From IMG/VR virus record IMGVR_UViG_3300025151_003852, positions 1-64,000 of that record: 64,000 bases of DNA. One strand, given 5' to 3'. Below are positions 1-20,137 of this stretch, one piece after another. Origin of the DNA: a virus. A program made the translations under genes and the position numbers. The first letter of the stretch is position 1, and every line of letters starts with the position of its first letter. The notes under the pieces are model-generated. The model did no database searches. It saw nothing but the letters and a program-made list of their open reading frames with translations, and was not told where the DNA came from.

Positions 1-3000
1 AAACGTAACTTTTCAAAGTCACCATCAACTTCATTGAAGTATTCTTCTCCGTCTAATGCACCTTTGATTGATTCTTGGAAGAAAGGCTGATCTGGATCTG
101 CTTCGTTCAACCATGCTTCTAATCGTTTCTTACTAATCTCTGTATCATCAACTAATAACTTAATAACTTCTCTAAATGCTGTACGCCATGTAGAGAATTC
201 ATCTGTGTTATACTGTGCGATACCTGATAGTAAAGGCACACTTGCATGTTCATCATCTAACGTAAAGTCTAAGCCATAACCATAGTTCTTAAGTGTTAAG
301 TCTTTGTTATACGCAATCATAGCCTGATGTCCATAGACTAATCCATTGACTGGATTCTTTGCTTCAAAGATATAATGCTTAGGTTGTTGCATTCTATCTG
401 GTTGCCAGTTAAAGTCAAACTTGGGCGATACTTTTAGTTTAGCAAATACAGTAAACGCCCAAGGTGTTTCACTTGCTTCTGCTGATGCGTGATATGCTTG
501 TACACGACCATCAACACCATCTACTCTTACTACTCTGTTTGGTACATTTTTTGTAATTTTTTGCAGATGTTCCCAATTTTCCTCTGCTCCTTTCTCTCCG
601 TTTGATAAGAAAACGATATCCATAGGCTTCGATAACGCAAGTCTATTGGCATTTTTAATATATGGGTATTCGTATAGTTCTCTCTTTACATGATCTTTTA
701 CTTCACGCGGAACTATAATTCTAGTTGCTCCTGTAGATTGTACTATGATGTTTTTAGACTCTGCTGTCCATAATGACATAGGTTCTTCATCAACTACTTG
801 TATATCTTCATCTGTTTTAGACACTAGAGTTACGTAAGGAAACTCATCTATATCTTTTAACGTCTTTGTATGTGTATCACTCTCAGAAACGATTACAGGC
901 GCTCTCAGACGTTGTGTACGCAACGTTTGATTGTAGTTTATCTTCTCGTAATCTTCTAATGATTCCATGTTGTCGATCAATTCACGTGTCTTGTTAACGT
1001 CTATAAAGAATGTATCTCCAAACTTTTGTTTACTGCTTGGAAACACATGCAATTGATCACGTGCAAATGGATCGCATATATAAGAGAAGTCAAAGTCACT
1101 GTAATCACAGATTGATGATGCTATCCATATGTGATGTTCTTTGCGTTTAGGTTGATCTTTAACAATCTTTTTCAACGTAGTAAGATAATCTGTATCATGT
1201 TCGATAGTACTTACACGTTGTCTTGGTGCTTTATCTTGTAATTGTTTAACAACTGCTTCTGTTTGTTTATTACCATGATCGACAACTACAATATCATATA
1301 CACATTCAGTGGCTACTGCTCTGTTTTCTTTTACAAAGTTTAAGTTGTCTAAGTGTTCGATGACATTAATGTATTTGGTGTCTTCATTAAATGTTTCTCT
1401 GTTAACCAGGTATGTTGTACCCCAATGCGACCATTGTGTACCGAACACATGTACCATTTTCATTTGCCATGGGTTAGGATAATAATTAAAATCAAATTCT
1501 TCGTAATCTAATTCTGAATTTAAGATCCAAAGTAAACTTGTTGTTGATCTGTTTATACATCTGCGAGTAGTTTCTACCCATGAGTTTAAGTATCTTGTTT
1601 TTTGTATGTTAGGATATCTCTCCTGTATTTTTGCAAATCGTTCTTTTGATTCTTTGTTCCCTCTATCAACATAGAACATATCTAAGTTGGCTTGAATTTC
1701 TCCTATTGAATCAGTCTCAACATAGTTAATTGTTGCATCTTTAAAGATTGCTGAGTTCACAAAATATGTTTGTGTGTTGATATTATCTTTAGAACCGAAG
1801 GCATGAATGTAATTAGATTGATAAACATCAGGTCTCCAACTAAAGTCAAAGTCTGTGTAAACTAAATCCATATTCAATGCCCAGAATACTTCGTTTGGAT
1901 GCTGTGCTACTAAATCTTCTAAAGTTGTTTCGATAAAGTAAACATCGATTTCATCAGGTATCACGTTGTCTGATTCAACGTTTTGTAAATATAATACTTT
2001 GCCATCATTGCCGGGCTGTACATACTTAGGACCGTCATCTTTACCTGCTGTACTACCAAACTGATAGATTGCAGGGTCTGCTGTATCATCTGGGTGCCAT
2101 GAAAAGTCAAACTTACTTACGTCTAAGTCACCGGGAACTACCCAATGTAGACGTTTACTGTTTGCTAACTTACGTGCTTTAATAATTCTTGTGTCAACAT
2201 ACTTGATGTCTTTTGCACCGGGTACTGTATATGTTGGACCACCTGTCTTTTGATGCTGTGTACCAAATTGATAAATGAATGGATCATCTTCTGCATATGG
2301 ATGCCAACTAAAGTCAAAGTCTTCGATATCTGCTGGGACTTTCCAGTTTGTTCTGTCACCATTATCAATTGAGTACGCAACTGGTTGCTCAATATATTTG
2401 ACTTTAGTAGCACCTTGAACTGTATACTTTGGACCACCTGTTAGTGCCCACTGAGTACCGAACTGATAAATGAAAGGCTCGTCTAAGATATCTGGATGCC
2501 ATGAGAAATCAAATCCTTCAACATCAATGCCTTCTGGTATTTCCCAGTTCTTTTTATTTGGTAACTTGTGAGCAATGTTACCCTCTACATATTTTACTTC
2601 AGTTGCACCCTCAACAATAAACTGCGGTCCACCTGTCTTTTGCCACTGAGTGCCAAACTGATAGATGTATGCTTGATCTTCAAGTGGAGATGGTCTCCAA
2701 CCAAAGTCAAAGTTTTTTGTATCTACATCGTCAGGTATAATCCAATCTTCATCATTTTCTTCTAACTGTGCAACTACATCATGTACATACTTGACAGACT
2801 CTGCGCCTATAACTCTGTATTCGATAGTAGGCATTTCTTCTGCTGAATAAAACTTGTTACCAAACTGATAGATGAATGGCTCGTCTGTTTCATCGTGGTG
2901 CCAACTGTAGTCAAAGTCTTTAATTTTATAGTTACCTAACGTTCCCCAATGTCTATTGTTAGGATCAGGTAATCTTTTTGATTTTATAATACGTGTATCA

Positions 3001-5516
3001 ATATATTTGATAGCACTACCTTCATGTGCCCCAGGTGTTATGTATTTGTGTCCACCTGTCTTTTGCCATTGAGTACCGAACTGATAGATAAAAGGCTCAT
3101 CTTCTGCATATGGATGCCACGAATAATCGAAATCATCTTCATCAATTAATTTAGGATCAAACTCCCAATTATCTTTACAAGGTAATGCTTGTGATACTTG
3201 ATCTTCTACATACTTAACTTCTTCTGCACCCTCAACTGTATAAACAGGTCCACCACTTAGAGCCCACTGTGTAGGAAATCTATAAGTGTAAGGTGGAGAA
3301 GTTGCATCCGGATGCCAACTGTAATCAAACTTATCACTATTAATATTGTCAGGGACAGTCCAATTGTCCATTTTAGGTAATGCTTTTGCTTTAAATTGTG
3401 TTTCATATTTTACCTCTGTTGCACCCTCAACATGATATCTTGGACCACCAGTCTTCTGCCATTGCGTACCAAACTCATGTATCATTGCTGGTTCGTTTGG
3501 ATTAGGCTTCCAACTAAAGTCAAACTCACTTACGTCTACGTCTTCTGGTATCTCCCAGTTTGTTTTATCGTGTCCTAATGTTGCTATCAAGTCATTAACA
3601 TAACTAACTTCGTCTGCTCCAATGACTCTATACTCTAACGTAGGCATTTGTTCAGCAGGATAATATTGATTACCAAACTGATAAATGAATGGCTCTGATG
3701 TTTCATCAGGATGCCAACTAAAATCAAATCCTTTGATACAATAGTTATTCAATACTCTGAAACTATTTGGATCTGCTAGTCTAGTTGCTTTTAGAATTCT
3801 TGTATCAATATATTTGACAGCACTGCCCTCATGTACTCCTGGAGTAACATATCTTGGTCCACCTGTCTTTTGCCATTGAGTACCAAATTGATAAATGTAT
3901 GGTTCGTCTTCTGCATAAGGATGCCAAGAAAAATCAAATGAATCTTCTTCGATTAACTTAGGATCAAATTCCCAGTTATCTTTGCATGACAATGCTTTTG
4001 CTACTTGCGAATCTACATACTTAACTTCTTCTGCATCATCACAACGATATATAGGACCACCTGACATAGCCCACTGAGTTGGGAAATGATAGATATATGG
4101 TACAGGTTCTGTCGAGTCTGGGTGCCATGAGAAATCAAATTCACTTGTGTCTATATTATCAGGTATTTCCCACTTATCTTCAGTGGGTGTTGCAATTGCG
4201 TAAAAAATATTTTGATATTTTGTTTCTGTTGCACCTTCTACAGTATAGATAGGTCCACCTGTCTTCTGATGTTGAGTGCCGAACTCATGTATCATAGCCG
4301 GCTCGTTAGGATTAGGTTCCCAACTAAAATCAAATGTATATTTTTGAATGTTGTCAGGTATTGTCCAGTTATCAGCACACGGCATACGTACAGTAGTTTC
4401 TGGCATAAACTGATATTCTGTTGCTCCTTCTACTTTAAACTCTATACTAACTTTATCTTCTGCTTTGTTCCATTGATTGCCCCATGCATAGATATAAGGT
4501 GGACTAGTAGGATTAGGTCTCCAACTAAAGTCAAACTCATTCATGTCAATTTTTTCATTTAACTTAAATAACTCTGGTTTAGATTTTAACTTGGGTGCAA
4601 ATTCTGTAATATGCTTTACTGCTTCTGCTCCTTCAACTTTGTAGATAAGTGTAGGCATAATAGTGCCATCATATAACTGATTACCAAATACATAGTTGAA
4701 TGGTTCTGTTTCGTTTGGATCAGGTCTCCACGTAAAGTCAAATGAGTCTTTTTCGATTTCTTCTAACACTTCCCAAACAGACATATCTACTGCTAAGTCA
4801 ACTGGCTTATCAATATACTTAATTGTGCCGTCATTACCGGGTACATGATATTCCATGATCGGTACTTGTTCTGCTGGTGCCCACTTGCTTCCCCATACAT
4901 AGATAAATGGCTCTGTGTCTAATGGGTCTGGACGCCATGTAAAGTCTACTTTACTTTCATCGATAGGTTCATTAATTTTCCACCTAGACATCTGTGGTTC
5001 AAGTTCGACAATAGTATCCATATACTTGACATGTCCTACATTATCAGGCGTATGATATTCTACAACACTTCTTTGTTCTGCTGTTGCAAATTTACTTCCC
5101 CATACATAAATGTAGGGAGGATCTGTAGGGTCTGGATGCCATGAGAAGTCAAATTTACTCTCATCAATTGTGTCAAACAGTTTCCAGCATTGATTTTTAA
5201 TAGACTTGCGTTTGATGGGTGCAACATCTGCACGATAAACTCTGATATCACTTTGTTCTTTAGCACATAACCAAGTGCCTGAATCTTTTTGATGTTGACT
5301 AGGCCATATGTTGTTGTGTTCTTCTGCCCAAACGTCTTCATCTGGTAAAAAATCAAAATCAAATTCCCAATCAAATCCTGTGTAATCACAAAACTCATTG
5401 ATTATCCAAAAGTGATCTGTCGTGGCTTCTTTGCGAGCCTCATCTATATCGAAAACTTGTCGTTCTCTAGGGTGAACGTTTGGTTTTTCACCAAAGTAAA
5501 ATACGTCTCTAAGCAT
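1..5516 (-). CDS. Giant repeat protein (>=1838 aa, 3' end outside window): 16 tandem ~67-aa repeats plus several degenerate GT-A-like domains
   Basis: Absent from the ORF track because its stop lies outside the window. Translated by hand from ATG at 5516 (MLRDVFYFGEKPNVHPRE...) with no stop found down to position 3 (...DGDFEKLR). The C-terminal domain (MDIVFLSNGE..RVDGVDG..AYHASAEASET..NPVNGLVYG..STWRTAFREVIK) is visibly paralogous to CDS 30784..31728. Confidence 0.9.
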   Translation of the reverse strand, partial: MLRDVFYFGEKPNVHPRERQVFDIDEARKEATTDHFWIINEFCDYTGFDWEFDFDFLPDEDVWAEEHNNIWPSQHQKDSGTWLCAKEQSDIRVYRADVAPIKRKSIKNQCWKLFDTIDESKFDFSWHPDPTDPPYIYVWGSKFATAEQRSVVEYHTPDNVGHVKYMDTIVELEPQMSRWKINEPIDESKVDFTWRPDPLDTEPFIYVWGSKWAPAEQVPIMEYHVPGNDGTIKYIDKPVDLAVDMSVWEVLEEIEKDSFDFTWRPDPNETEPFNYVFGNQLYDGTIMPTLIYKVEGAEAVKHITEFAPKLKSKPELFKLNEKIDMNEFDFSWRPNPTSPPYIYAWGNQWNKAEDKVSIEFKVEGATEYQFMPETTVRMPCADNWTIPDNIQKYTFDFSWEPNPNEPAMIHEFGTQHQKTGGPIYTVEGATETKYQNIFYAIATPTEDKWEIPDNIDTSEFDFSWHPDSTEPVPYIYHFPTQWAMSGGPIYRCDDAEEVKYVDSQVAKALSCKDNWEFDPKLIEEDSFDFSWHPYAEDEPYIYQFGTQWQKTGGPRYVTPGVHEGSAVKYIDTRILKATRLADPNSFRVLNNYCIKGFDFSWHPDETSEPFIYQFGNQYYPAEQMPTLEYRVIGADEVSYVNDLIATLGHDKTNWEIPEDVDVSEFDFSWKPNPNEPAMIHEFGTQWQKTGGPRYHVEGATEVKYETQFKAKALPKMDNWTVPDNINSDKFDYSWHPDATSPPYTYRFPTQWALSGGPVYTVEGAEEVKYVEDQVSQALPCKDNWEFDPKLIDEDDFDYSWHPYAEDEPFIYQFGTQWQKTGGHKYITPGAHEGSAIKYIDTRIIKSKRLPDPNNRHWGTLGNYKIKDFDYSWHHDETDEPFIYQFGNKFYSAEEMPTIEYRVIGAESVKYVHDVVAQLEENDEDWIIPDDVDTKNFDFGWRPSPLEDQAYIYQFGTQWQKTGGPQFIVEGATEVKYVEGNIAHKLPNKKNWEIPEGIDVEGFDFSWHPDILDEPFIYQFGTQWALTGGPKYTVQGATKVKYIEQPVAYSIDNGDRTNWKVPADIEDFDFSWHPYAEDDPFIYQFGTQHQKTGGPTYTVPGAKDIKYVDTRIIKARKLANSKRLHWVVPGDLDVSKFDFSWHPDDTADPAIYQFGSTAGKDDGPKYVQPGNDGKVLYLQNVESDNVIPDEIDVYFIETTLEDLVAQHPNEVFWALNMDLVYTDFDFSWRPDVYQSNYIHAFGSKDNINTQTYFVNSAIFKDATINYVETDSIGEIQANLDMFYVDRGNKESKERFAKIQERYPNIQKTRYLNSWVETTRRCINRSTTSLLWILNSELDYEEFDFNYYPNPWQMKMVHVFGTQWSHWGTTYLVNRETFNEDTKYINVIEHLDNLNFVKENRAVATECVYDIVVVDHGNKQTEAVVKQLQDKAPRQRVSTIEHDTDYLTTLKKIVKDQPKRKEHHIWIASSICDYSDFDFSYICDPFARDQLHVFPSSKQKFGDTFFIDVNKTRELIDNMESLEDYEKINYNQTLRTQRLRAPVIVSESDTHTKTLKDIDEFPYVTLVSKTDEDIQVVDEEPMSLWTAESKNIIVQSTGATRIIVPREVKDHVKRELYEYPYIKNANRLALSKPMDIVFLSNGEKGAEENWEHLQKITKNVPNRVVRVDGVDGRVQAYHASAEASETPWAFTVFAKLKVSPKFDFNWQPDRMQQPKHYIFEAKNPVNGLVYGHQAMIAYNKDLTLKNYGYGLDFTLDDEHASVPLLSGIAQYNTDEFSTWRTAFREVIKLLVDDTEISKKRLEAWLNEADPDQPFFQESIKGALDGEEYFNEVDGDFEKLR
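1990..5200 (-). repeat. Coding tandem repeat, 16 copies of ~200 bp, consensus W-x-(I/V)P-x-x-(I/V)D-x-x-x-FDFSWHP-x(4-5)-PFIYQFGTQWQKTGGP-x-Y-x-VEGA-x-x-VKY
   Basis: FD(F/Y)(S/T/G)W(H/R/K/E)(P/H) cores found at about 5140, 4935, 4728, 4520, 4318, 4125, 3922, 3712, 3508, 3312, 3115, 2900, 2695, 2497, 2302 and 2095. Confidence 0.9.
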
Positions 5517-5522: not shown

Positions 5523-5528
5523 TACTTA
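5523..5528 (-). promoter_or_regulatory. Candidate late promoter variant TAAGTA, 6 nt upstream of the giant repeat gene ATG
   Basis: Same spacing to ATG as the TAAATA motifs elsewhere in the window. It overlaps the upstream TAA stop, so it could be coincidental. Confidence 0.4.
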
Positions 5529-7061
5529 TGAAATTACGCGGGTCTTGTAAAGTTTTTCAAATCGATCTGCGTCGGATCTATCGTTAACCATGGGCTCACC
5601 TCGTACATTTAATGATGTGTTTAACAAGATAGGACATCCTGTTTCTTTATACCATGCTTCTAGCAATCTACGAATACCTGTGCCGTCATCTGGTACTGTT
5701 TGTACTCTGCTTGTGCCGTCTTTGTGTACAATAGCAGGGAACTTCTTAGGGTACTTACAAGGTGCTGTAACTTGCATGTAAGGTGAGTTGTTCCAATGCG
5801 TCGGCATTTCAAAATATTCATCTACAAGTTCTTCTAGTATCATAGGAGCGAACGGTCTAAACTGTTGTCTCTTTTTAATCTTGTTTACTTCTGATTTTAT
5901 CTTTGATCCTCTTGGGTCTGCTAGTAATGATCTAGTTCCCAATGCTCTAGGACCGAACTCAGCACGTCCAGAGGCTATCCCCACAATCTTATCTTCTTTT
6001 AGTGCTTTAACAGTTTCAACAACAGGATAAACACCTACAATATCTGTACCTAAAAATGCGTTTTTCCAGTTTAATTTCTTGCCGTAGCCTAATGCCGCGG
6101 CTCCTAATGAATTACCTGCATCACCTGGATTAGGCATAATCCAAATGTTTTCAAAATATGTACCCAAGAATCTATTAGCAGAACAGTTAAGTGCAACTCC
6201 TCCACCATAGACTAAGTTATCACTATCATTTAGTGTTCTTGCTTTGCTCATTACTATTTTAATAAGTTTTTCTACATACACTTGTGCTGATGCGGCTATG
6301 TCGAACTCATCTGCTCCTTCTAAGAATGAATCGTCAATACCGATGTGTGTATTCTCTTTAAACAACAATGAATCTGTATGGGCTCCAAACTTATCTTCTA
6401 TGTCTTTAACATACTTAGGCTCACCATATGCGGCCATACCCATTAGAATGTATTCTTCGTCTAGTGGTCGTAAACCTAATCTTGCTGTCATTGCACTATA
6501 GTATAATCCAATAGAGTTAGGGTACTTAAGTGTCCATAACTTTTTATACTTTGCTCTGCCCCGTTTATTATAATATCCTTTCCATATAGTAGCACAATCA
6601 TTCTCACCGATTGCGTCTATCACAACTATAGTTGCTTCATCAAAAGGTGATGTTTGAAAACTGGCTGCCGCGTGACATTTGTGATGAGGATGAGTTTGAA
6701 CAATATTAGGTATATGTCCGTCATGCATAAAGTGACCCCATGTTGATGTCACTCTGTTTAGTAACTCGTTGTATATGTTTTCTCCAAAGATTTGTGAGAA
6801 TCTAAACGGTCCTAACTTTTGACCTGCTCTAAACTGACGCCAGGCTTTTACCCAAGGTCGTTCATAATAATTTACAAATAACCGGTCTTCCTTGTTTACC
6901 CATTCTAATGCTTCATCGATAATTTCCGGACACAACTCTGAGTCATGTTTCTTTTTACTATATCGTTCACTGTGACCTGCAAATAAAATGTCTCCGTTGT
7001 CGTCTACCAAAGATACGCCTGCATCATGGAATCCACAACTAATGCCTAAATATTTTTTCAT
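5526..7061 (-). CDS. O-carbamoyltransferase, NodU/CmcH/TobZ family
   Basis: Family motifs HDAG..SERYS.KKH, HHKCHAAA, DAIGE, EYILMGMAAYG, GGVALN, P.PGDAG, GRAEFGPRALG.RS, KKRQQFRPFAP, H.DGTSRVQTV, LNTSLN.RGEP. Confidence 0.93.
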   Translation of the reverse strand: MKKYLGISCGFHDAGVSLVDDNGDILFAGHSERYSKKKHDSELCPEIIDEALEWVNKEDRLFVNYYERPWVKAWRQFRAGQKLGPFRFSQIFGENIYNELLNRVTSTWGHFMHDGHIPNIVQTHPHHKCHAAASFQTSPFDEATIVVIDAIGENDCATIWKGYYNKRGRAKYKKLWTLKYPNSIGLYYSAMTARLGLRPLDEEYILMGMAAYGEPKYVKDIEDKFGAHTDSLLFKENTHIGIDDSFLEGADEFDIAASAQVYVEKLIKIVMSKARTLNDSDNLVYGGGVALNCSANRFLGTYFENIWIMPNPGDAGNSLGAAALGYGKKLNWKNAFLGTDIVGVYPVVETVKALKEDKIVGIASGRAEFGPRALGTRSLLADPRGSKIKSEVNKIKKRQQFRPFAPMILEELVDEYFEMPTHWNNSPYMQVTAPCKYPKKFPAIVHKDGTSRVQTVPDDGTGIRRLLEAWYKETGCPILLNTSLNVRGEPMVNDRSDADRFEKLYKTRVIS

Positions 7062-7207
7062 TTGTAGATGAACGGATCCCTCTTTTTAAGTTCTGCTAAA
7101 CGTTTCTTGTATTCTTTTTCACGTTTATATTTGATATAGGGTGTCTTTAAGAAATCAGCAATCTTACGAATAAATGATTTGAGTTTGTTAATTATCTTTT
7201 TAAACAT
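7058..7207 (-). CDS. Small basic protein, 49 aa, ending RDPFIYK (reminiscent of the PFIY-motif SxtK/DUF5989-like peptides found beside carbamoyltransferases)
   Basis: Hand-translated MFKKIINKLKSFIRKIADFLKTPYIKYKREKEYKKRLAELKKRDPFIYK. ATGA overlap with the carbamoyltransferase start, GAGGA upstream, fills the intergenic gap. Confidence 0.75.
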   Translation of the reverse strand: MFKKIINKLKSFIRKIADFLKTPYIKYKREKEYKKRLAELKKRDPFIYK

Positions 7208-7950
7208 TTGTATTCCTCATTAAAGTTAATCAATTCATCAGCAAATAATTTGTGCGGTTCTTCGCCGTGATGCCAATACTTTGCTTTTTCGTTGACATAT
7301 CCCAGACGTTGATATTTTTGATAAAATGCTTCGTCTTTATTGTTTAACTGATAGTATTTATTGTCATCTACCAAGGGTAAAAGATTTTGAATAGCAGGTA
7401 TGTTATCTAAAAAGAATGGCATCGAATTTAACATCAGATAAGGAATCTTATGTGATTGCAATAGATATTGTACTTGTAAAATTAATTGATATGTTTGATA
7501 CTCTAAGTAAGGCTGATGATTAACCATAAATTTGTGCAAGTCTGGAGTGTGTTTTTGTTCTTCTTCATCTCCACCAGTCCAACCTATAATAACTTTATAA
7601 AAGTAATCACTGCCCTTTTCATACCAAGCAGTTGCATGTGATGCACTTTCATAGTTACGTTGTGATTCACTAGGTATTTCTAATCTAGTAGGTTCTGTCC
7701 ATGATACAAGTACATTGACATTCATAGTATCTGGATTATAACAATTGTGGAACCATTGCAATACTTGTCTACTAATACCTGTATTAGTTGCACCCACTTG
7801 TGCGATATTAACTGGCTTACGTTTTAACTTTTTAGCAACTAACGCACCATATGCATGTTCTCTGTTATATTTTGAATCTTCTTCTCCGTCGATCTCAGAT
7901 CCTGCGGCGTGTGAGCAACCAGCAATTAATAATATCTTTTCTTTTTTCAT
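7192..7950 (-). CDS. SGNH/GDSL-like protein (putative acyl esterase/transferase)
   Basis: Block I-like AGCSHAAG, NIAQVGATN, VSWTEPTRLE, C-terminal WHHGEEPHKLFA. Paralogous to 15766 and 18927. Confidence 0.6.
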   Translation of the reverse strand: MKKEKILLIAGCSHAAGSEIDGEEDSKYNREHAYGALVAKKLKRKPVNIAQVGATNTGISRQVLQWFHNCYNPDTMNVNVLVSWTEPTRLEIPSESQRNYESASHATAWYEKGSDYFYKVIIGWTGGDEEEQKHTPDLHKFMVNHQPYLEYQTYQLILQVQYLLQSHKIPYLMLNSMPFFLDNIPAIQNLLPLVDDNKYYQLNNKDEAFYQKYQRLGYVNEKAKYWHHGEEPHKLFADELINFNEEYKCLKR

Positions 7951-8828
7951 TCTATTCCTCTCAATCGTTTTACAGTTTCATCATAATCTAAATAAAAATG
8001 ACCGTTGTATCTTTCAGTAAAATATCTCATGTTTGCTCTTACATTTAAACTAGCAAACAATTCAGTTCTTTCAAATCTTTCCCAACCTGTTCTCTTCCAA
8101 CGTTGATCTTGGGACCAAGAGTTTTGATTATATAATATTTGTTTGACAGGGACAGACGATTCATAATCTAATTCATCATTTACTAAACGTTTAATAATCG
8201 GTTCTTGTAAAAACGCAAGTACTTGTTCCCCTGTGTATGAGCCAAAGTCTGATGTTCCTTTTAATCCTCTTGACTCCCACCAGTTACCGTAACTGTTTAT
8301 TCTTTCATACTCTTCCCAAACCCAAGTGCCATCATCAGTTTTACATACTTGTGGCTCGTTTGCCATTACAACTGTGCCATCTACTTTACTAGCACCTATC
8401 ATTGTAGTAGTCATTCTATATTCGCAACATTTAGATTCTTCTGCTACGTCATACATTTGACCTGACTTTACAAATTCTTCAATATCTAAATCAATTATAA
8501 CTGGTTTGTACTTATACTTGTCACACCAGTCTAATGCATACTTTGTATCATGTTCATTGTATTTAAAATCTTTACCATAACTTATAATAGCAACTGTAAA
8601 TGGTATCTTTGCTTCTCTAAAAACATTAACCATGTATTCACAGTCATTGCCTCCACCAAACATAATATGAACATCGTCATCAGATTCATCATATATTGTT
8701 TGAGCGGCTTTTATAGCCTCTTTATAATATGATTCTGCTGTTCTAGGAATAGATTTAATATCTATTCTGTAATCTTTACCATGTCCATGAAATGTCAGAA
8801 AGTCATCATGGGAAACTTTAGTTTGCAT
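7947..8828 (-). CDS. Hypothetical protein, possible adenine-nucleotide alpha-hydrolase fold with degenerate PP-loop
   Basis: VHIMFGGGNDCE resembles the hhhSGGxDS PP-loop. 293-aa ORF coupled to both neighbours. Confidence 0.45.
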   Translation of the reverse strand: MQTKVSHDDFLTFHGHGKDYRIDIKSIPRTAESYYKEAIKAAQTIYDESDDDVHIMFGGGNDCEYMVNVFREAKIPFTVAIISYGKDFKYNEHDTKYALDWCDKYKYKPVIIDLDIEEFVKSGQMYDVAEESKCCEYRMTTTMIGASKVDGTVVMANEPQVCKTDDGTWVWEEYERINSYGNWWESRGLKGTSDFGSYTGEQVLAFLQEPIIKRLVNDELDYESSVPVKQILYNQNSWSQDQRWKRTGWERFERTELFASLNVRANMRYFTERYNGHFYLDYDETVKRLRGIE

Positions 8829-10610
8829 CTAGTTATGAAACTCCGTATCATCAAAGTTTGGACTCCATGTTAGTTTCATGTATGTCTCTCTATTGTGTTC
8901 TAGTATAGGCATCATCTGTTCATACATGTCATGTAGTTCTGTTATAGGCTTATCTAAAATTGATTTGATTAACTCTAATATCTTTTTCAAACGTTCACCG
9001 TGATCTTCTGTTTCATCATAACTCTCGTCCCAAAACTGATCAAACGTTTGATAACCAGACTCTTTAATATACTTTAATGTATATGGTGGTGCTAGTAATA
9101 TAAACGGCTTCATATATTGCATGGGTTGCAATACTTTTTCACTATAGTTCGCACATGATTGTGCGAATCTAGTTTCTGTTACGATATCTACAAACACATC
9201 TCTATAAAAGTTTGCTAACATAGTTTCTTTTGTATTATACAATGATGGTGTTTGCCCGTCTTTATATTCTGCAACCTTAGGCCAAATTGCTTCTTGTGAA
9301 TCAATTCCTATATCACTTGGTTTGTCTACAGTATAAGGTGCGTTTTCTTTACATACTAAATTATTATCTGTTAACTGTTGATAAACTTCAGGTGATGTTG
9401 TCATCCATTGATCAATATCAAAATATAAATTATCTTTTACAACATCAAGTGAATCACTAAAGTACCAACTCAAATAACCATTTTCTCCTGCTAAAAAGTT
9501 TGCTAAAATTTGACGATGTTTCGTAAATCTCCAGTTCAATGATATAAAATGTTTATTAAACTTATGCTTGTGAAAGTCTTCTTTGATTAACGCATTGAGT
9601 CCTACAATAGGACGTTGTGACATAAGATATAGGTCTTCACATTCTAAGTTTAGTATGTTAGCATAATGTGGATAAGATTCTTTGATTCCATATTCACCTG
9701 TCTTAACTGTGATCATTCCAGGCGCTATACCATTGCGATGTTGATAACGTTGGATAGAATCTAATTCTTTAGAACGCATTCTGCTCTTGTCTTCAGGAAA
9801 AGAAAACTCACTATAAAAACCTTGTGTAAATTCTTCTCCTTCATAATATGAACACATGGGCTCAAATAACCAGATAGTCAATCCCCATCTATTAATTTCA
9901 TCTGCGCCGTGTTGATCATGCTCAATCTCGTCAAGTTCTTCGATATAACCATTGTGCATGTATATCATGTCAAATTGTTGTTGATTGTTTTGTGGATTGA
10001 TTAGAGGCAAGATTGATGTCTGTACAAATGGATGCGACAGTTCTGGCTTTTCATGTTTGTTAGGCACGTTGAGAGGAAATAAATGTTCTAGTTGTCCTAC
10101 GTAAGATTCTTTACCTACTAACTGCACCATATACATTTTCTTTTTGCCTACATTTGCATATGATACTTTTGTCTCAGCCCAAAACTTAAACCAGTCTCCC
10201 TTCTTCCAATTAGTGTGAGGTATGCCATCGATTTCTAATAGATGACCCGGCTGCCAATCTTCTAACATCAAAATGCTAATCATTACATCATCAGGGTCTG
10301 CTTTATTTTCTATACAATAATCAGTAATCGAAGGAACATGAGGTGGAATAACATCATACTGACTTAATCTAATAAATTTAAGTCCTTGATCGAAAAGACC
10401 AAACACTCTTTCTATGTCTCTAGCCCATGCAGGTATAGTAGGTTCATTATATTCTTCTACTGTAAAATTGATTGCAGTATTTGTTAAGTATCCTTCTTTA
10501 TGATAAAGTGACACTCTTTCTGTAGACAACGTAGGGCGAGTGTAAGGTAAAAATCTATGTTCTTTGTGCCAAGTTACTCCAAAGTGACCTCTTTCGGTTT
10601 CAGTGTTAAT
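8829..10610 (-). CDS. Fusion: degenerate 2OG-Fe(II)/cupin-like N-terminal domain plus glycosyltransferase-like C-terminal domain (start uncertain)
   Basis: The N-terminus aligns by eye to the 14931 cupin (LEDWQPGH vs LHDQKKGH; ANVG vs ANLG). The C-terminus has DIVTET..SEKVLQP..KPFILL..GYQTFDQFWDESYD, shared with 20138 and 22456. Track start 10697 overlaps the upstream gene by about 90 nt; ATT at 10610 is proposed instead. Confidence 0.6.
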   Translation of the reverse strand: MNTETERGHFGVTWHKEHRFLPYTRPTLSTERVSLYHKEGYLTNTAINFTVEEYNEPTIPAWARDIERVFGLFDQGLKFIRLSQYDVIPPHVPSITDYCIENKADPDDVMISILMLEDWQPGHLLEIDGIPHTNWKKGDWFKFWAETKVSYANVGKKKMYMVQLVGKESYVGQLEHLFPLNVPNKHEKPELSHPFVQTSILPLINPQNNQQQFDMIYMHNGYIEELDEIEHDQHGADEINRWGLTIWLFEPMCSYYEGEEFTQGFYSEFSFPEDKSRMRSKELDSIQRYQHRNGIAPGMITVKTGEYGIKESYPHYANILNLECEDLYLMSQRPIVGLNALIKEDFHKHKFNKHFISLNWRFTKHRQILANFLAGENGYLSWYFSDSLDVVKDNLYFDIDQWMTTSPEVYQQLTDNNLVCKENAPYTVDKPSDIGIDSQEAIWPKVAEYKDGQTPSLYNTKETMLANFYRDVFVDIVTETRFAQSCANYSEKVLQPMQYMKPFILLAPPYTLKYIKESGYQTFDQFWDESYDETEDHGERLKKILELIKSILDKPITELHDMYEQMMPILEHNRETYMKLTWSPNFDDTEFHN

Positions 10611-11232
10611 GTTGCACCCCTTTATTAAAAATTTCGTATGTTGACAAGTTAGGGTAATCTTTGTATGACCATAGTTTGGGTACACGTGCAATTGCATCGT
10701 CTAATTTGTCTAAGCCTAACTGTGCTGTTTCAAATGTCATATGATAATGATATCCAAATCTTTTGATTTCTTGGTCTGCCCATGCGGCTTCTAATTCTGG
10801 CCTACCGTCATACCTTATCTGTCTTAAAATTTCTGCATCTTCTGCATTGTCTAAAAGTATCATACCGCCTTTACCCACACTCAAATGTTTTTTAAGTTGA
10901 AAACTTACACACATAATAGTTGATGGTATGTAAGAGTTTTGTCTCCACATAGTTGCGGCATCAAATACATTAGTATTGCCTATCTGATAATACTCTTGCC
11001 ACTTTTCAGAAGTAAAGTGCCATTCATAACCTAACTTTTCAAATGTCATAGGTATAGACAAGTATGTCCAATTAGGACATGTAACTTGATACTTTATTCC
11101 ACGATCACCTTCATCTATTAATCTTAATGCTAACTCAATGCCATGCGTACAGCAATCAACTGCTACTGCATAAGGTGATCCGAAATAGTTTGATACTCTT
11201 TCTTCTAATTGTAATATTGGATTCATCATCAT
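10606..11232 (-). CDS. Short DegT/DnrJ/EryC1/StrS-family PLP-dependent aminotransferase
   Basis: AVAVDCCTHGIELAL, TYLSIP, DAA, SFQLKKHLSVGKGG (PLP-Lys region), RYDGR, GYHYHM. Confidence 0.82.
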   Translation of the reverse strand: MMMNPILQLEERVSNYFGSPYAVAVDCCTHGIELALRLIDEGDRGIKYQVTCPNWTYLSIPMTFEKLGYEWHFTSEKWQEYYQIGNTNVFDAATMWRQNSYIPSTIMCVSFQLKKHLSVGKGGMILLDNAEDAEILRQIRYDGRPELEAAWADQEIKRFGYHYHMTFETAQLGLDKLDDAIARVPKLWSYKDYPNLSTYEIFNKGVQH

Positions 11233-13541
11233 GGTAATAATTTAGGGTCAAGTTTTGGTTTGCCTTGTTGTGGTTTCTTTTTAAGAATAGAATCTAATGT
11301 TATTGCTTGTTCCATTTCTGCTTTTTGTGGCATGTCTAAATCTTTAGATGAATCTCGTCTTTCTGCTTTTTCTGCTAGTGTGACTTTATACTGATCTAAA
11401 TCTTCCCAATCACCTGTTCCTTGCCAATTTAATTCAAATGAGAAATCAATACTTGCATTTAATTCTTCTTCTTCACGTAATAAGTCAGTAAAGTCTTGTC
11501 CTGATCTACCTTCATTTACGTCCCATTCTGCTTTTGCTAGTTTTCTTGCACGTTTAGCAGTGTTTGCTTGTATACGTGAATAGTCTTGTGCATAGAACGG
11601 ACCCTTTCTGCCTTCTGGGGGCGGCTCTCTATCATCGTATGGATTATCAATTTGATCAAACTTCATTTTAAAATCTGCTGTCCATTGACCTGCATGATCG
11701 ATTTTAAAATTGTATTCAGCATTAAACATACCCGGTCCATACTGAGTGCCGAACTCTTTTAAATCTATCTCTGGATTAAATCTAATGTTTGCTGTGTAAC
11801 CACCTCTTGCTCTCCAAAGATTTCTTAAGAAAGGCCAAATCTCATTAACAAGATGATTGGCAAAAACATTATAGTTACCATTTTTATCTTTAATATTTTC
11901 TTTAATAATGTGATAGTCAAAGTCTTCTTCGTATTCTAATGACCCTTGAAATTCTTCATCGTCTAATATAATATGATAATGTTCTTTCTTTAACGCATCT
12001 CTAATAGGATATGTAATAGGAACTTCTGTACAGTTTTGAAAAAAGTCTAACCACATATGAATAAGTTTAACTCTCATCATTACATGTGTGCCGCCCATCT
12101 TAAAGTCATTTGATATCCAATGACCTTGATACTTGTGCCACGACACATTGTATGCATGTGGATTTTGTCCTACGATTGTTTCAGGACCTAAGCCGTAACC
12201 AACACCTAGACCCATGTTGTTAATGTTATTGTTTCTGTTACGCCACATAAATGTCATAGTGTCTGAGTAGTCTTGGTAGTCTTCTGTAGGGAATGCTACG
12301 ATCCAGTTTGTTGCTCCCCATATACCTACTTTCTTACAGTCAATAAAGTTTTGTTCCATTGCTTCGACAGTTACGCCTTTATGCATATCATCTAATACTT
12401 TTTGTGAGCCTGACTCACAACCAAAGTTAAACATAATACACCCGCCGTCGGCTAAGTCTTGTAGATATTCTAAGTCCATACGTTTATCACAACGAGCATA
12501 ACCAGTCCATTTAACTTTTAATTCTTTTGCTTTACATGCAAGTGCAAAGGCACGCAATTCTTTAATGTTACCATTGATCAACGAGTCAATAAACCAAATA
12601 ACATCTGTGCCTTTATTATAATATAACCATTCGATTTCGTCAATCAAATCTACTGCTTGTCTTTGACGATATCTCCAAAAGTGTGTCTCCTCACAGAACG
12701 TACACTTTGCAGTACAGCCTCGACTAAACTCTGAGTTGACTCCGTTAGGTACGTCATACAAACTAAAATCAATCGATTCGTAGTCTGGCATTGGTAAATT
12801 GTTAATGTTGATTCTTTCACTTTCTTCTTGGTCTAATATTTTAGGGCCATCATGTTCGACACCTTCTTCGATTTCTTCTAACATGACTAAAAGATTCTTT
12901 TCCCCTTCTCCGATGACAACGTAGTCATAATAGTCTTCAATAGCAAACCAACTTTTATGTACATTTGGTCCACCTACTGAAATTTTAATACTTGGATCAC
13001 GTTTCTTAATTTCTTGCATCATATACTTACTAGGTTCTTCTGAGATATAATACAATGAGAAGCCTACAACATTAGGTTTCATTTCTAATATTCTTTCAAT
13101 CTGCTCATCTAACAGAGGTTTTAAAATAGGATGAATATCAGTAGTGTAAGTAGGAGGCAGCCAATGCCAAGATGACGATGGATCCCAAAGTCTGAACGGA
13201 AGTTTCTCGTTTGGCTGCCAATCTTTTCTATATTCCTGATACGCCATTGCGTTCAAGTCTATAATAGTTGTTTCATAACCTGCGGCTTTAGCAATACCTG
13301 ATAGTCTTGCTAATGAAAATGGTGGCATGTACGGAGACCATTCAGGACACAGTACTAATACCATAGTAGTTTCACGTGTTTTATAGTCTACGTAAACTGG
13401 AGTTAAATTCTTTTGTTGTACTGGTTTAGCATATTCAGAAATAGCCATCATCATGTCATGGTGTCTTGCATCTCCCACATCTGACGGCGGCTTAGGCTTT
13501 GGTTCATTTTTTCTTGCTAATGACTGTAGTGTAAAATCCAT
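11229..13541 (-). CDS. Cobalamin-binding radical SAM protein with long C-terminal extension
   Basis: PPFSLARL..IDLN..VVGFS..VGGP (B12-binding), SRGCTAKCTFC, FIDS, FGCESGSQKVLDDMHKG. Start moved to ATG 13541, which has GGGAG and TAAATA upstream. Confidence 0.88.
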   Translation of the reverse strand: MDFTLQSLARKNEPKPKPPSDVGDARHHDMMMAISEYAKPVQQKNLTPVYVDYKTRETTMVLVLCPEWSPYMPPFSLARLSGIAKAAGYETTIIDLNAMAYQEYRKDWQPNEKLPFRLWDPSSSWHWLPPTYTTDIHPILKPLLDEQIERILEMKPNVVGFSLYYISEEPSKYMMQEIKKRDPSIKISVGGPNVHKSWFAIEDYYDYVVIGEGEKNLLVMLEEIEEGVEHDGPKILDQEESERININNLPMPDYESIDFSLYDVPNGVNSEFSRGCTAKCTFCEETHFWRYRQRQAVDLIDEIEWLYYNKGTDVIWFIDSLINGNIKELRAFALACKAKELKVKWTGYARCDKRMDLEYLQDLADGGCIMFNFGCESGSQKVLDDMHKGVTVEAMEQNFIDCKKVGIWGATNWIVAFPTEDYQDYSDTMTFMWRNRNNNINNMGLGVGYGLGPETIVGQNPHAYNVSWHKYQGHWISNDFKMGGTHVMMRVKLIHMWLDFFQNCTEVPITYPIRDALKKEHYHIILDDEEFQGSLEYEEDFDYHIIKENIKDKNGNYNVFANHLVNEIWPFLRNLWRARGGYTANIRFNPEIDLKEFGTQYGPGMFNAEYNFKIDHAGQWTADFKMKFDQIDNPYDDREPPPEGRKGPFYAQDYSRIQANTAKRARKLAKAEWDVNEGRSGQDFTDLLREEEELNASIDFSFELNWQGTGDWEDLDQYKVTLAEKAERRDSSKDLDMPQKAEMEQAITLDSILKKKPQQGKPKLDPKLLP

Positions 13542-13570
13542 ACGTTGCTTATGTACTCCCGTTACATGTA

Positions 13571-13630
13571 TATTTAACAAAATTTCACACCTGCAATATT
13601 TTTAACGACTGTCCTTTTCTATACTAAATA
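13571..13630. promoter_or_regulatory. Divergent pair of late-promoter-like TAAATA motifs (minus 13571-13576; plus 13625-13630)
   Basis: Each motif points toward an SD sequence (GGGAG / AGGAG) and ATG of the divergent genes at 13541 and 13654. Confidence 0.65.
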
Positions 13631-13653
13631 TTAACATAGGAGTAGATAATAGT

Positions 13654-14616
13654 ATGTACAGCAAAAATGAATGGGGTAAGTTAAAGAAGGTAGTCGTAGG
13701 TATTGCAGACAATGCACGTATACCTGAAGTAGATACCAGCCTTCGACATATCAATTATGCTGACGTAAAAGATGAACTAGACATTCCTACAGGGAAGTAC
13801 CCCCAAATAGTCGTTGATGAAGCAAATGAAGATTTAGAAACATTTGCTGACTTTTTGAGAAACGAAGGCGCGGAAGTAGTTAGGCCTGACATCACAGAGT
13901 GTAATTACTACAACTATTGTCCGCGGGATTCCGTTATTGTTTATAAAGATAAGGCTATTGCTACTCCTATGCCTCTCAGGGCTAGACGTAATGAGTACCA
14001 AGCATATGAACGTCACTTAGAAAACGTTCATCCATATGATATTATACGCAGTGATGATCTTTACAACACAGGATGTTTGGGAGATCCTGATGTGTTAGCA
14101 TTGACAGAAGCAGAACCAGCATTTGATGCCGCTAATGTGTTACGTGCTAACGATGATTTGTTATACTTAGTTTCTAACTCTGGTAACAAATCTGGCGCAA
14201 GTTTACTACAAAGCATTGTTGATGGCAAAGTACATACAGTAGAGGGTATCTACAGTTATATGCACTTAGACTCAACTGTGTGCTTTCTCAGAGACGGTTT
14301 GATGCTACTTAACCCTAGCAGAGTCAAAGACGTTAATCAATTACCAGAACCATTTAGACATTGGGATTACATAATGTGTCCAGATCCTGTACCAATTGGA
14401 CATTATCAAAACTATCGTAATTCATCAAACTGGGTAAGCATGAACTTGTTCTCAGTTAATTCAAACTTAGTTGCACTAGAAGAAAGACAAGAACCTCTTA
14501 GAAAAGAATTAGAAAAACACGGCATTGAGTGTGCTATGTTACCTATGAGACATGCAATTACATTGGGCGGATGTTTTCATTGTGTAACTAACGACTTAAT
14601 ACGTGAAGATGACTGA
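13654..14616 (+). CDS. Amidinotransferase (inosamine-phosphate StrB1 / glycine amidinotransferase family)
   Basis: S.NEWG.LK.VVVG, NYCPRD, FDAAN, SGN..G, HLDST, LGGCFHCVTNDL (catalytic Asp/His/Cys of the pentein fold). AGGAG SD. Confidence 0.9.
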   Translation: MYSKNEWGKLKKVVVGIADNARIPEVDTSLRHINYADVKDELDIPTGKYPQIVVDEANEDLETFADFLRNEGAEVVRPDITECNYYNYCPRDSVIVYKDKAIATPMPLRARRNEYQAYERHLENVHPYDIIRSDDLYNTGCLGDPDVLALTEAEPAFDAANVLRANDDLLYLVSNSGNKSGASLLQSIVDGKVHTVEGIYSYMHLDSTVCFLRDGLMLLNPSRVKDVNQLPEPFRHWDYIMCPDPVPIGHYQNYRNSSNWVSMNLFSVNSNLVALEERQEPLRKELEKHGIECAMLPMRHAITLGGCFHCVTNDLIREDD

Positions 14617-14773
14617 TTGGATATTTAATAAACTCGCACCTTATGCTATAAGATTTAGAGAATGGTCTAAGGGAAAAATTTGGGTGCAAATACCTTTATT
14701 CATTTTAATATTATGGATGCTTGGGTTTGCAAACCCTTATTGGTGTGTATACCCAGTATGTTGGATACAATAA
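14609..14773 (+). CDS. Small membrane protein, 54 aa
   Basis: Hand-translated MTDWIFNKLAPYAIRFREWSKGKIWVQIPLFILILWMLGFANPYWCVYPVCWIQ. Overlaps the upstream stop, has one hydrophobic segment and a CxxxxC tail. Confidence 0.65.
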   Translation: MTDWIFNKLAPYAIRFREWSKGKIWVQIPLFILILWMLGFANPYWCVYPVCWIQ

Positions 14774-14775
14774 AG

Positions 14776-14931
14776 ATGAATAGATTATCAGACAAAGTTT
14801 TATTTGCAATGGTTATTTTTGTAATGGTAGTTGGTATATGGGATATGTCTCGTACGGAACAAATTGAACCTATTATAGAATATATAGATTATCCGTCACA
14901 TATACCAGAGTATATTAAACAGATTGCATAA
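14776..14931 (+). CDS. Small membrane protein, 51 aa
   Basis: MNRLSDKVLFAMVIFVMVVGIWDM...; the 3' part of track ORF 14680..14931. TAATG coupling to the next gene. Confidence 0.6.
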   Translation: MNRLSDKVLFAMVIFVMVVGIWDMSRTEQIEPIIEYIDYPSHIPEYIKQIA

Positions 14932-15515
14932 TGATTAAAGGTAAAGTAGAAGTTACATGGACTGAAGAAGATTATATGAATCTTCCTTGGTTTACAAATG
15001 ACGTACATGAAGAAAAGTTTAATGCAACTGTAGCAACTAAAGGCTATGATGTAGGTGTTTCTATGTGTTTTGAAGACTTGCCAGAAGTGTTCCATAAAGT
15101 TGTAGAGCAGTTTGACTTTTTAGATAATATAGTCATCGCAATTAACAAATTAAAAGTAGGTAAAATTTTACCATTCCATACTGACAGATTCATGTCATAC
15201 AAACAACGAAACAATATCAGTGATAATCAACCAATTGAACGTGTGATTGTATTCTTACATGATCAAAAGAAAGGTCATCAATTGTGGATAGAAGATCAAA
15301 TATGTACAGGTCCTGCAGGTTCATACTTTGGTTGGGAACAGAATACTGAACATATGGCCGCAAACTTAGGTGATGAAGATAGATATATTATGCAAGTCAC
15401 AGGTATTACTAAAAATCGTGTAAAAGAACCACAGCATCCTGCTGAGGGAGAAGCCTCTTTAAACTCTTATGGCGATGTTGTTATATATCGTAACGGTATT
15501 TGGAAAAGACCTTAG
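14931..15515 (+). CDS. 2OG-Fe(II) oxygenase-like cupin (Asp/Asn beta-hydroxylase-like)
   Basis: ILPFHTD (HxD), distal H in EHMAANLG, followed by RYIMQVTG. Confidence 0.72.
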   Translation: MIKGKVEVTWTEEDYMNLPWFTNDVHEEKFNATVATKGYDVGVSMCFEDLPEVFHKVVEQFDFLDNIVIAINKLKVGKILPFHTDRFMSYKQRNNISDNQPIERVIVFLHDQKKGHQLWIEDQICTGPAGSYFGWEQNTEHMAANLGDEDRYIMQVTGITKNRVKEPQHPAEGEASLNSYGDVVIYRNGIWKRP

Positions 15516-15712
15516 GCTTGTTTATCTAACATTCCTAGTTCTTTTTGTAGTCTTTCTATTTCTCGTTTAAGATGTAATTTATCGAATTTTTCTTTTTGAA
15601 TGATGGAATCATCAACTCGGTTTTTGTAATCGTCTGAAACTTGTTTATCTAATGCTCTGTGTCTGTCCATTAACGTTGCTAGTCGATTACGTAGTGATTC
15701 TTTTGAACTCAT
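15512..15712 (-). CDS. DUF465/YdcH-like small coiled-coil protein
   Basis: L..LMDRHRALDKQV...KLHLKREIERL pattern. Strong AAGGAGG SD. Confidence 0.7.
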   Translation of the reverse strand: MSSKESLRNRLATLMDRHRALDKQVSDDYKNRVDDSIIQKEKFDKLHLKREIERLQKELGMLDKQA

Positions 15713-15755
15713 CGTTGGGGTTCCTCCTTATTTGTGAACTATTAATATATAATAA

Positions 15756-15761
15756 TACTTA
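15756..15761 (-). promoter_or_regulatory. Candidate late promoter variant TAAGTA
   Basis: Lies in the AT-rich intergenic gap upstream of the DUF465-like gene. Confidence 0.4.
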
Positions 15762-15765
15762 GTAG

Positions 15766-16650: not shown

Positions 16651-17005
16651 ATAATGCCTGTGCCTCTGGTTTTAATATTATTCCAAACATGTCTTCAAAG
16701 TATGATTGTGCATATAAAAATCCACCTTTGTCATAAAAGTCAGTATTGAATTCAAACACAACTAACGGATCAAAGTCAGGTTTATCTACATTGTGAGGTA
16801 AAATAAAAACACTGTCTTTTCGTAAATCTTCTGGTATAGAATCAAAGTCATCACTGCAAACGATAAGTGTCTTATCAGCAGATTCAACTATATCTCTGTT
16901 TAACTCTGCTACAGTCTGATGATCATTCATTACGTCCTCATCATATTCTAACATATATGTTAATTCAATTGGAAGTTTTATCAAATATATTCTTTTTGTA
17001 ATCAT
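16631..17005 (-). CDS. Hypothetical acidic protein
   Basis: ORF coupled to the upstream radical SAM gene by an ATGA overlap at 17002-17005. Confidence 0.6.
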   Translation of the reverse strand: MITKRIYLIKLPIELTYMLEYDEDVMNDHQTVAELNRDIVESADKTLIVCSDDFDSIPEDLRKDSVFILPHNVDKPDFDPLVVFEFNTDFYDKGGFLYAQSYFEDMFGIILKPEAQALYENSIR

Positions 17006-19895: not shown

Positions 19896-20081
19896 TTACT
19901 TTGCTTTCTTTTTAGTAGTCTTTTTCTTTTTAAAAGCGCCTTTAGCAGTCTTGTAGACTTTAGTGTATGCTTCATCTACGTCAGGTGTGCTAGGATCATC
20001 TGCTACATAACGTCCTCTAGCATCTCTATTTCTGACTGTAATCATGCCAAAAAACTTACTAATTTTATTCCACCAACTCAT
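19896..20081 (-). CDS. Small protein with RDARGRYVADDPSTPD motif and Lys-rich tail
   Basis: Start at ATG 20081 follows GGAG. Own TAAATA motif upstream. Confidence 0.72.
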   Translation of the reverse strand: MSWWNKISKFFGMITVRNRDARGRYVADDPSTPDVDEAYTKVYKTAKGAFKKKKTTKKKAK

Positions 20082-20109
20082 AATAATCTCCATATATGTG
20101 TTCTATCTC

Positions 20110-20116: not shown

Positions 20117-20137
20117 TCTACGCCGGATGTACGTAAA

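Follow-up and report, generated by a model that had tools for sequence, protein, structure and literature searches.

The 64,000-nucleotide stretch analysed here (the window; positions 1 to 64,000 of IMG/VR virus record IMGVR_UViG_3300025151_003852) begins with a gene for a large protein, P0001, which bears the marks of a glycosyltransferase of the GT-A fold in which one part of the enzyme domain has been amplified. A short N-terminal domain is followed in it by an array of 16 truncated GT-A-like modules and by four larger domains, D1 to D4, and in related phages the number of modules rises with the length of the sugar-tailoring gene island that lies beside the gene. We tentatively read P0001, with slightly less than an even chance of being right, as a GT-A-derived multi-module transferase-plus-scaffold of a phage-encoded glycan pathway.

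The open reading frame (ORF) of P0001 continues for 1838 codons without a stop and runs off the edge of the window. Since the first base of the window is also that of the 128,169-bp record (CheckV completeness 37%), it is the contig end that truncates the gene, and intact relatives of 1855 aa (locus L008, 98% identical) and 1856 aa (P0007, 90% identical) imply that about 18 residues are missing. The original prediction, made from the sequence alone, had described an unannotated protein of more than 1838 aa, and this description holds: the protein is without a match in Pfam, PHROGs, NCBIfam or the sequences of the PDB, and the overlooked stop or frameshift that was named there as a possible refutation was not found, the frame being open here and intact in the 98%-identical locus.

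The array consists of tandem units of 65–72 aa. The motif [FVW]D[FY][STGN][WY] occurs 20 times in P0001, and 16 of these copies (aa 122–1136) are spaced 65–72 aa apart; the four others lie in the larger domains at aa 1223, 1341, 1475 and 1700 (nucleotides ~1850, 1496, 1094 and 419), and a degenerate copy is present in the N-terminal domain at aa ~48–56 (nucleotide ~5375). A strict scan of all six frames found the motif in this ORF only, while a looser pattern gave one unrelated match among the 24 other ORFs of the window. A hidden Markov model (HMM) of the repeat recognises every one of the 16 units at independent E-values of 8e-24 to 8e-31 and extends to D1 (5e-8), D2 (2e-6) and D4 (1e-3), its score on D3 (0.81) not being significant; over the 128-kb record it has no match outside the repeat protein. 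The sixteenfold repetition proposed by the original prediction is therefore confirmed by both motif spacing and the HMM. The motif cores that it had placed inside the larger domains at about 5370, 1835, 1485, 1090 and 410 are found at those coordinates, and the strings IINEF, ALNMD, ILNSE, IASSI and TVFAK that it had quoted are all present in the ORF.

Within the array the units are 23–81% identical to one another. Four long-loop units (R1–R4) are followed by a four-unit super-repeat that is present three times (R5–8, R9–12 and R13–16), and the first two of these blocks are 67, 65, 81 and 60% identical unit by unit. Tandem Repeats Finder detected no repeats at the DNA level and the best DNA matches within the gene are only 66–70% identical, from which we conclude that the repeats are old. 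Over 3295 distinct repeats from 290 proteins the conservation reaches 100% for W17, 99% for D14 and P19, 98% for Y28 and 97% for Y42. On sequence grounds such an invariant Trp/Asp/Pro/Tyr pattern could suit one binding site per unit, and a structural role of these residues is also possible. The repeats are acidic (isoelectric point (pI) ~4.5), and the protein has no transmembrane segment. In an AlphaFold model of aa 1–452 the array is beta-rich and units R1–R5 have predicted local distance difference test (pLDDT) values of 90–96, which predicts a well-folded array; in the same model the N-terminal module gets no higher than 46–71.

The nature of the larger domains follows mainly from structural comparison. 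An AlphaFold model of aa 1055–1838 (48 sequences) has a mean pLDDT of 82.9, and in the PDB Foldseek matches it best to multi-GT-A enzymes, namely LH3 (E 8e-6), mimivirus R699, heparosan synthase 2, LARGE1 and K4CP. By VIA-align, D3 (model residues 349–485) and D4 (model residues 576–718) reach Z 10.0–10.7 and 9.3–10.4, respectively, on GT-A / sugar nucleotidyltransferase cores, the targets including B4GALNT1, WrtF, ArnC, GnT-I, IspD and MobA, with root-mean-square deviations of 2.8–3.7 Å over 125–143 aligned residues. As modelled, D3 and D4 belong to the GT-A / nucleotide-diphospho-sugar-transferase fold; the structure prediction and fold search that the original prediction had proposed for the flanking domains bear out its view of the larger domains as GT-A-like. 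The assignment is structural for D3 and D4, and D2 is linked to D3 through the HMM comparison, the two models matching each other at 7e-13 and 5e-16. The N-terminal domain is 60–100% identical among family members; its HMM matches D3 at 1.3e-4 and D2 at 4e-3, and the D3 HMM in turn matches the N-terminus at 4.6e-4. The D1 HMM matches every repeat (14 of the 16 at an independent E-value of 1e-3 or lower) and D2 at 2.5e-14. D4 occurs in every architecture variant of the family. Mean column identity amounts to 82% in D2, 75% in D4 and 47% in the N-terminus plus repeats, and D2 also carries FDFNYYPNPWQMKM.

Alignment of the repeat and D2 profiles by hhalign (96%, E 3.5e-9, 55 columns) places repeat columns 2–57 on D2 columns 53–110, and the aligned stretch opens with the strand on which GT-A enzymes bear DxD; it reads W-x-I in the repeat and LLWILN in D2. 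One unit thus covers the strand of the DxD position, the FDFSWxP loop and the next three strands, and this span identifies the repeat as a D2-type module minus its N-terminal nucleotide-binding half. HMM homology connects the repeat with D1, D2 and D3 in a chain, and D4 with a paralogue encoded upstream; the conclusion that the repeat protein is GT-A-derived, with one subdomain amplified, is supported. The original prediction had spoken of an expanded post-DxD subdomain. Homology of the unit to a part of the GT-A domain stands, and the boundary has to be corrected, as the unit starts at the strand preceding the DxD position. More distant relatives possess arrays of fuller modules of 95–118 aa ahead of the same D4 domain, such as twelve D1-like modules with W.W..D.RIDY..FDF.WLPD in P0453 and ten D3-like modules in P0457, and these arrays look like intermediate stages of the same amplification process. 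P0383, P0453, P0457, P0498 and P0517 represent other architectures of the superfamily, and in one variant, which may be cut N-terminally, 21 short repeats are joined straight to D4 without D1–D3.

Structural searches with the array itself were less informative. Foldseek with the model of the N-terminus and R1–R5 gave no PDB match at E <= 0.001, and the best Z in a wide VIA-align search with the repeat-array model over 48,161 chains was only 3.2; this null result does not amount to a new fold, since the array was searched whole and not as a single unit. Among the VIA-align rows that cover a single unit, rows 1–5, 11 and 22 were C-terminal halves of GT-A-fold enzymes (CesA1, FKRP, B4GALNT1, LARGE1 and 6p61). 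These weak model-based rows fit the homology between repeat and GT-A and prove nothing alone.

Contrary to the description of P0001 as catalytically dead in the original prediction, the loss of activity is not established. Over 48 sequences D2 shows no variation at S1334, E1335 and L1336 and has D1337 conserved to at least 90%, which leaves an E-x-D directly behind the strand; an Asp/Asn pair, likewise invariant, follows the first strand of this most conserved of the domains. The replacement of DxD, claimed for all of the larger domains, is correct for D1, D3, D4 and the N-terminal module, although a single acidic residue is retained at the DxD place in all of these but D4; D2 keeps S-E-L-(D) there. 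In D4 the invariant Lys1693 aligns with the second Asp of DGD in the paralogue and, to judge from this alignment, could mimic a metal (metal-independent chemistry) or mark a pseudoenzyme.

The string FILIDGD, which the original prediction had used as its reference for an intact motif, is indeed located in that paralogue, ORF 30784..31743, and the ORF is homologous to the C-terminal domain of P0001 (BLASTP E 2e-11; hhalign 98.1%, E 9.8e-14, 185 columns; D4 HMM 9e-14). Its identity of ~74% over more than 8000 matches suggests that it is a core gene. The LSYDE and DGD motifs presumably recall GT2 enzymes; the ORF has no Pfam, PHROG or NCBIfam match at the E limits used, and Atlas offers GT2 only as a weak lead (0.86–0.88). 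Two paralogous proteins of 265 and 288 aa without assigned function (E 4e-8; 32225–33881, minus strand) are encoded directly upstream of it and travel with it in loci L048 and L061.

The repeat protein belongs to a large family without annotation. Relatives of 1010–3217 aa number 981 at E <= 0.001 (among 3783 candidates), 241 shorter ones, some of them fragments, were found at the same limit among 459 candidates, and none of the relatives carries a name other than 'hypothetical'. In total the family comprises more than 1,200 clusters at 90% identity from cosmopolitan marine and freshwater jumbo phages. Of 1.84 billion cluster representatives the repeat profile matched 189 at E <= 0.001, and this small number indicates that the module is confined to a family of aquatic jumbo myoviruses; P0513, an Ig-repeat protein, was discarded from that search as a false match. 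P0001 gave nothing at E <= 0.01 in Pfam, NCBIfam and PHROGs (best values 0.088 in Pfam and 0.02 in NCBIfam, far below curated cut-offs), and a search of PDB sequences with the family profile gave nothing at E <= 1. The match to an already characterised repeat family that the original prediction had listed among its possible refutations is thus absent from Pfam, PHROGs, NCBIfam and PDB sequences. A designed protein at E 0.008, the sole match in PDB sequence searches with profiles A1, A6 and the paralogue, was taken as chance, and the Pfam labels that had been precomputed for homologues (DUF4185, DUF5820) all fall short of their cut-offs. The UniProt-derived BFVD holds two family members only, both 'uncharacterized'. 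No paper on the repeat-protein family was found in the literature; in the accessible part of the moraphage paper (PMC12619734), which deals with phages of up to 307 kb, only generic glycosyltransferases are mentioned.

In the comparison of copy number among phages, also suggested by the original prediction, the count runs from 1 to 35 in the 221 sequences with both ends, out of 298 that form a biased sample (the best matches of both searches and 58 distinct locus ORFs). Protein length in the 221 sequences equals 67.4 n + 781, n being the repeat count (r = 0.998), and the N-terminal 121 aa and C-terminal 644 aa are 55–100% identical across the family. Many arrays read LLLL(gggL)n, where g is a short-loop and L a long-loop unit, a pattern which indicates that arrays grow mainly by the four-unit block.

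The repeat gene is the last gene of a sugar-tailoring cluster, and island genes lie upstream of it in all 47 distinct loci; downstream, a trio of hyp469, AAA ATPase and DUF2201 genes is present in 29 of the 47, most of the others having short flanks. The DGD paralogue marks the other border of the island in 22 of 25 and 12 of 14 records, the five without a match all being fragments (10–26% complete). In 35 genomes the paralogue and the repeat gene lie 5.5 to 27.3 kb apart, and this distance correlates positively with repeat number (Spearman 0.71, p 2e-6, n = 35; slope ~0.8 unit per kb). The relation persists in independent contrasts on a tree built from the conserved N- and C-terminal parts of the same repeat protein (r 0.51, p 0.0018, permutation p 0.006), 24 of the 32 informative contrasts sharing the sign. 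This scaling lends indirect support to the idea of the array as a scaffold or platform.

Table 1. Position of the repeat gene, its domains and the bordering features in the window
Feature	Coordinates	Strand	Remarks
Whole ORF (P0001)	3..5516	-	1838 aa, 3' end cut by contig end; full length ~1855-1856 aa
N-terminal domain	5190..5516	-	aa 1-109; mini module WIINEFCDY..FDWEFDFDF; distantly similar to D2/D3
16-unit repeat array	1941..5189	-	aa 110-1192; from motif spacing and repeat HMM; model pLDDT 90-96 for R1-R5
D1	1692..1940	-	aa ~1193-1275; short GT-A-like module: strand-helix-strand, then FDFSW part
D2	1305..1691	-	aa 1276-1404; most conserved module and closest relative of the repeats; invariant S-E-L-(D) at DxD position
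D3	630..1304	-	aa 1405-1629; GT-A-fold core (aa ~1403-1539, modelled) plus extension
D4	3..629	-	aa 1630-1838 (+~18 missing); GT-A fold (modelled); K-L instead of DGD
Hypervariable sugar-tailoring island	5526..30784	-	between paralogue and repeat gene
D4 paralogue	30784..31743	-	314-319-aa GT2-like protein; invariant LSYDE and DGD; upstream border of island

The island encodes a NodU-like carbamoyltransferase, a DegT fragment, an NAD epimerase/dehydratase, two B12 radical S-adenosylmethionine (SAM) methyltransferase-like proteins, four N-terminal-twitch radical SAM proteins, three proteins with a GCSWT-type N-terminus, a DUF481 protein and several unknowns; profile scans recognised no other glycosyltransferase in it. 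The four paralogous radical SAM genes (24898–30784, minus strand; 426, 415, 440 and 466 aa) have a SPASM/twitch-like domain at the N-terminus and match NCBIfam NF033640 at 312–371 bits (cut-off 170). A fifth, shorter radical SAM ORF is located at 23900–24913, and the 224-aa DUF481 protein (26180–26854, minus strand; E 1e-21), with a signal-peptide-like N-terminus, is encoded amid these genes. The DegT/DnrJ match covers only profile positions 164–236 of 360 in a 208-aa ORF (10606–11232, minus strand), which overlaps a 622-aa ORF (8829–10697, minus strand) by 92 bases; the pair is kept in many loci and may represent a split, fused or frameshifted gene. The 622-aa protein shares a C-terminal domain of ~230 aa with unknowns of 453 and 509 aa (20138–21499 and 22456–23985, minus strand; BLASTP E 2e-15 to 2e-8), and in relatives this domain often occurs twice per island. 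The GCSH/GCSWT-type motif is found in the products of 7192–7950, 15766–16650 and 18927–19895 (minus strand), one of them DUF6071; we take it to recall SGNH/GDSL hydrolases or acyltransferases. In L008, beyond the position of window base 1, the start of a 211-aa methyltransferase gene (15568–16203, plus strand; Pfam MTS, E 6e-9) falls on the repeat gene's stop codon; the homologue of this methyltransferase gene sits inside the island in other relatives.

Upstream of the paralogue there are baseplate hub and wedge genes, recognised by PHROG matches, and a 6429-aa ORF. This giant ORF (37209–56498, minus strand) adjoins the baseplate genes and has homologues of 6070–6753 aa in 19 of 25 related records, its length being tightly conserved. 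A protein with a Peptidase_G2 chaperone-type domain is encoded among the tail-side neighbours on the same strand. The baseplate wedge protein (ORF 56514..59897), which matches PHROG baseplate families, shares ~32% identity with its counterparts in jumbo myoviruses of the 121Q, Atu_ph07 and XbC2 types, and related records with terminal repeats of 360,683 and 364,247 bp indicate a jumbo phage of ~330–365 kb. Marine, estuarine and seawater metagenomes contain near-identical DNA in 14 DNA runs, with at least 0.78 of the sampled words in each, and the source sample itself may be among these runs. In run X3 a joint skipping 5134 bases has a short side of only 23 letters; it was set aside as probably derived from a relative. 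In one sample, 25–26 of 30 bins of the repeat gene are covered by metatranscriptome contigs, a result that was not used as evidence of expression, as DNA carry-over is possible.

We infer a role for the repeat protein in a glycan pathway along the following lines. The C-terminal domains, together with the DGD paralogue, would carry out or organise sugar transfer; D2 with its invariant E-x-D would be the best candidate for an active site, and D4, where Lys replaces Asp, a possible non-canonical or regulatory copy. The array would form a folded, acidic, aromatic-rich rod, whose modules may bind either the glycan, during its growth or once complete, or the tailoring enzymes that the neighbouring island encodes; either kind of binding would explain why module number follows island size. 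Lengthening of the rod would proceed mainly by duplication of four-unit blocks, giving the 1–35 units of related phages. The target of the glycan is probably a virion component, as the island directly follows, on their downstream side, the genes for the baseplate and the giant fibre. A more specific version, which we consider doubtful, sees the array as a scaffoldin in which each half-GT-A module docks one tailoring enzyme or holds one glycan unit; phages would then tune the array by four-module blocks as tailoring genes come or go.

Several observations weigh against this interpretation. None of the Pfam glycosyltransferase models matches P0001 even at E 1, the N-terminal module, D1, D3 and D4 lack the canonical DxD, and the best structural rows for the single unit are weak (Z ~3 over 64–72 residues) and below significance. 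The scaling was obtained with 35 partly related genomes and with a tree built on the repeat protein itself, island length reflects gene content only crudely, and linkage in a recombination hotspot may contribute to the correlation. Repeat number shows no correlation with how long the adjacent giant protein is (r 0.30, p 0.20, n = 20), and an all-against-all BLAST of the island proteins revealed no common terminal docking motif.

The same facts may be read in other ways. If P0001 lacked transferase activity altogether, it would be a pseudo-glycosyltransferase that only binds a glycan or a partner, for example through pairing of D4 with the active paralogue. We regard this as rather unlikely. 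The replaced DxD in four of the modules, the invariant Lys1693 opposite the second Asp of DGD, the small size of D1 and D2 for complete GT-A domains (~85–130 aa) and the repeats, which are certainly without the nucleotide-binding half, all agree with it; the invariant S-E-L-(D) and Asp/Asn pair of D2 do not, the column identity of D2 exceeds what is expected of a mere spacer, and the island would otherwise be left without a recognisable transferase. It also appears unlikely that P0001 is a structural virion protein, with an N-terminal anchor, a repeat shaft of variable length and non-catalytic GT-A-like binding heads, although its gene is on the same strand as, and downstream of, the baseplate hub and wedge genes, the 6429-aa ORF and the gene of the Peptidase_G2-domain protein. 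A copy number from 1 to 35 is what fibre shafts and adhesins display, the array is confidently folded and beta-rich in the model, and the baseplate wedge resembles that of the jumbo myoviruses 121Q and Atu_ph07. In the usual phage fibre, however, a conserved N-terminal anchor is combined with a variable receptor-binding tip, and here both ends are conserved, the C-terminus most of all. No fibre-like match of meaningful score was returned by Foldseek or VIA, and scaling with island size is not predicted for a fibre.

Two further possibilities have little in their favour. Glycosyltransferases that decorate phage DNA exist, as the accessible part of Pyle et al. (bioRxiv 10.1101/2023.12.21.572611) describes, and the repeat protein might act as the transferase that attaches an island-built sugar to phage DNA; the small methyltransferase gene that overlaps its stop codon in L008 and a ThyX gene ~9 kb downstream could be brought in here. 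We find this highly improbable, as so strongly acidic a protein is ill-suited to be a DNA-binding array and the island adjoins tail genes; general scans turned up no hydroxymethylase or other base-modifying genes, no search aimed at them having been made. Least probable of all, and barely credible to us, is the suggestion in the original prediction that the W-x-P repeats are substrates cross-linked or modified by SPASM-type radical SAM enzymes. The near-invariance of Trp (100%) and Pro (99%) over the 3295 repeats and the four to five radical SAM genes of the same operon made it worth considering. The four enzymes, however, belong above the cut-off to the NF033640 N-terminal twitch family, match no peptide-maturase family and have genes for an epimerase, an aminotransferase and a carbamoyltransferase as neighbours. 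In D2, where it is part of a folded GT-A-like core, the motif is just as invariant, single-repeat forms keep the same neighbours, and a folded protein of ~1,856 residues is unlike the short precursor beside a peptide-maturase SPASM enzyme that characterises ribosomally synthesised and post-translationally modified peptides.

Among known systems the C-terminal 780 aa find their best Foldseek and VIA-align matches in human LH3/PLOD3, Pasteurella heparosan synthase 2, the chondroitin polymerase of E. coli K4, LARGE1 and CHSY3–CHPF, in which several GT-A domains share one chain or complex and some are catalytically silent. The identity to these enzymes is only 6–11%, and, unlike P0001, they have neither a half-domain array nor FDFSWxP; the Pfam models that describe them miss P0001. 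Virus-encoded GT-A proteins are also known from mimivirus (R699/R655) and chlorella virus PBCV-1 (A064R domain 1), where they take part in virion glycosylation and belong to variable sugar clusters. The matches to the giant-virus proteins (9dyt E 1.3e-4, 9crz Z 9.6, 2p72 E 1.5e-2) reflect kinship at the level of the fold only, and, in contrast to our case, these viruses infect eukaryotes and their proteins lack the repeat array. In the cellulosome scaffoldin and in the coiled-coil ruler of WbdD, which acts on the E. coli O9a O-antigen, the number of modules or the length sets enzyme docking or glycan length; they offer a functional analogy for the island scaling, their folds (cohesin and coiled coil) being unrelated. 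The only match in a cultured phage is to two hypothetical proteins of Ralstonia phage RsoM2USA, ORF348 (31.6% identical to D4, E 3e-7) and ORF350 (42.8% identical to the DGD paralogue, E 2e-71), which differ from the repeat protein in being stand-alone single domains without repeats; the 10 virion bands identified in the accessible part of the description of that phage (PMC8504454) include neither of them. The fold class and proteins with several GT-A domains are known; an array of truncated GT-A half-modules that varies in number up to 35 is not, within the reach of these searches.

If the derivation proposed here is true, the family would clearly illustrate how a new repeat protein can be made from an amplified fragment of an enzyme fold, with the arrays of 95–118-aa modules as its living intermediates. 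If the scaffoldin version were true as well, these phages would possess a modular platform for virion-glycan assembly, recycled from the acceptor-side half of a glycosyltransferase fold. For the study of how tailed phages make and employ glycans of their own, this unannotated family is of interest because it borders a hypervariable glycan island, and the way in which module number follows island size provides a concrete handle on the organisation of such pathways.

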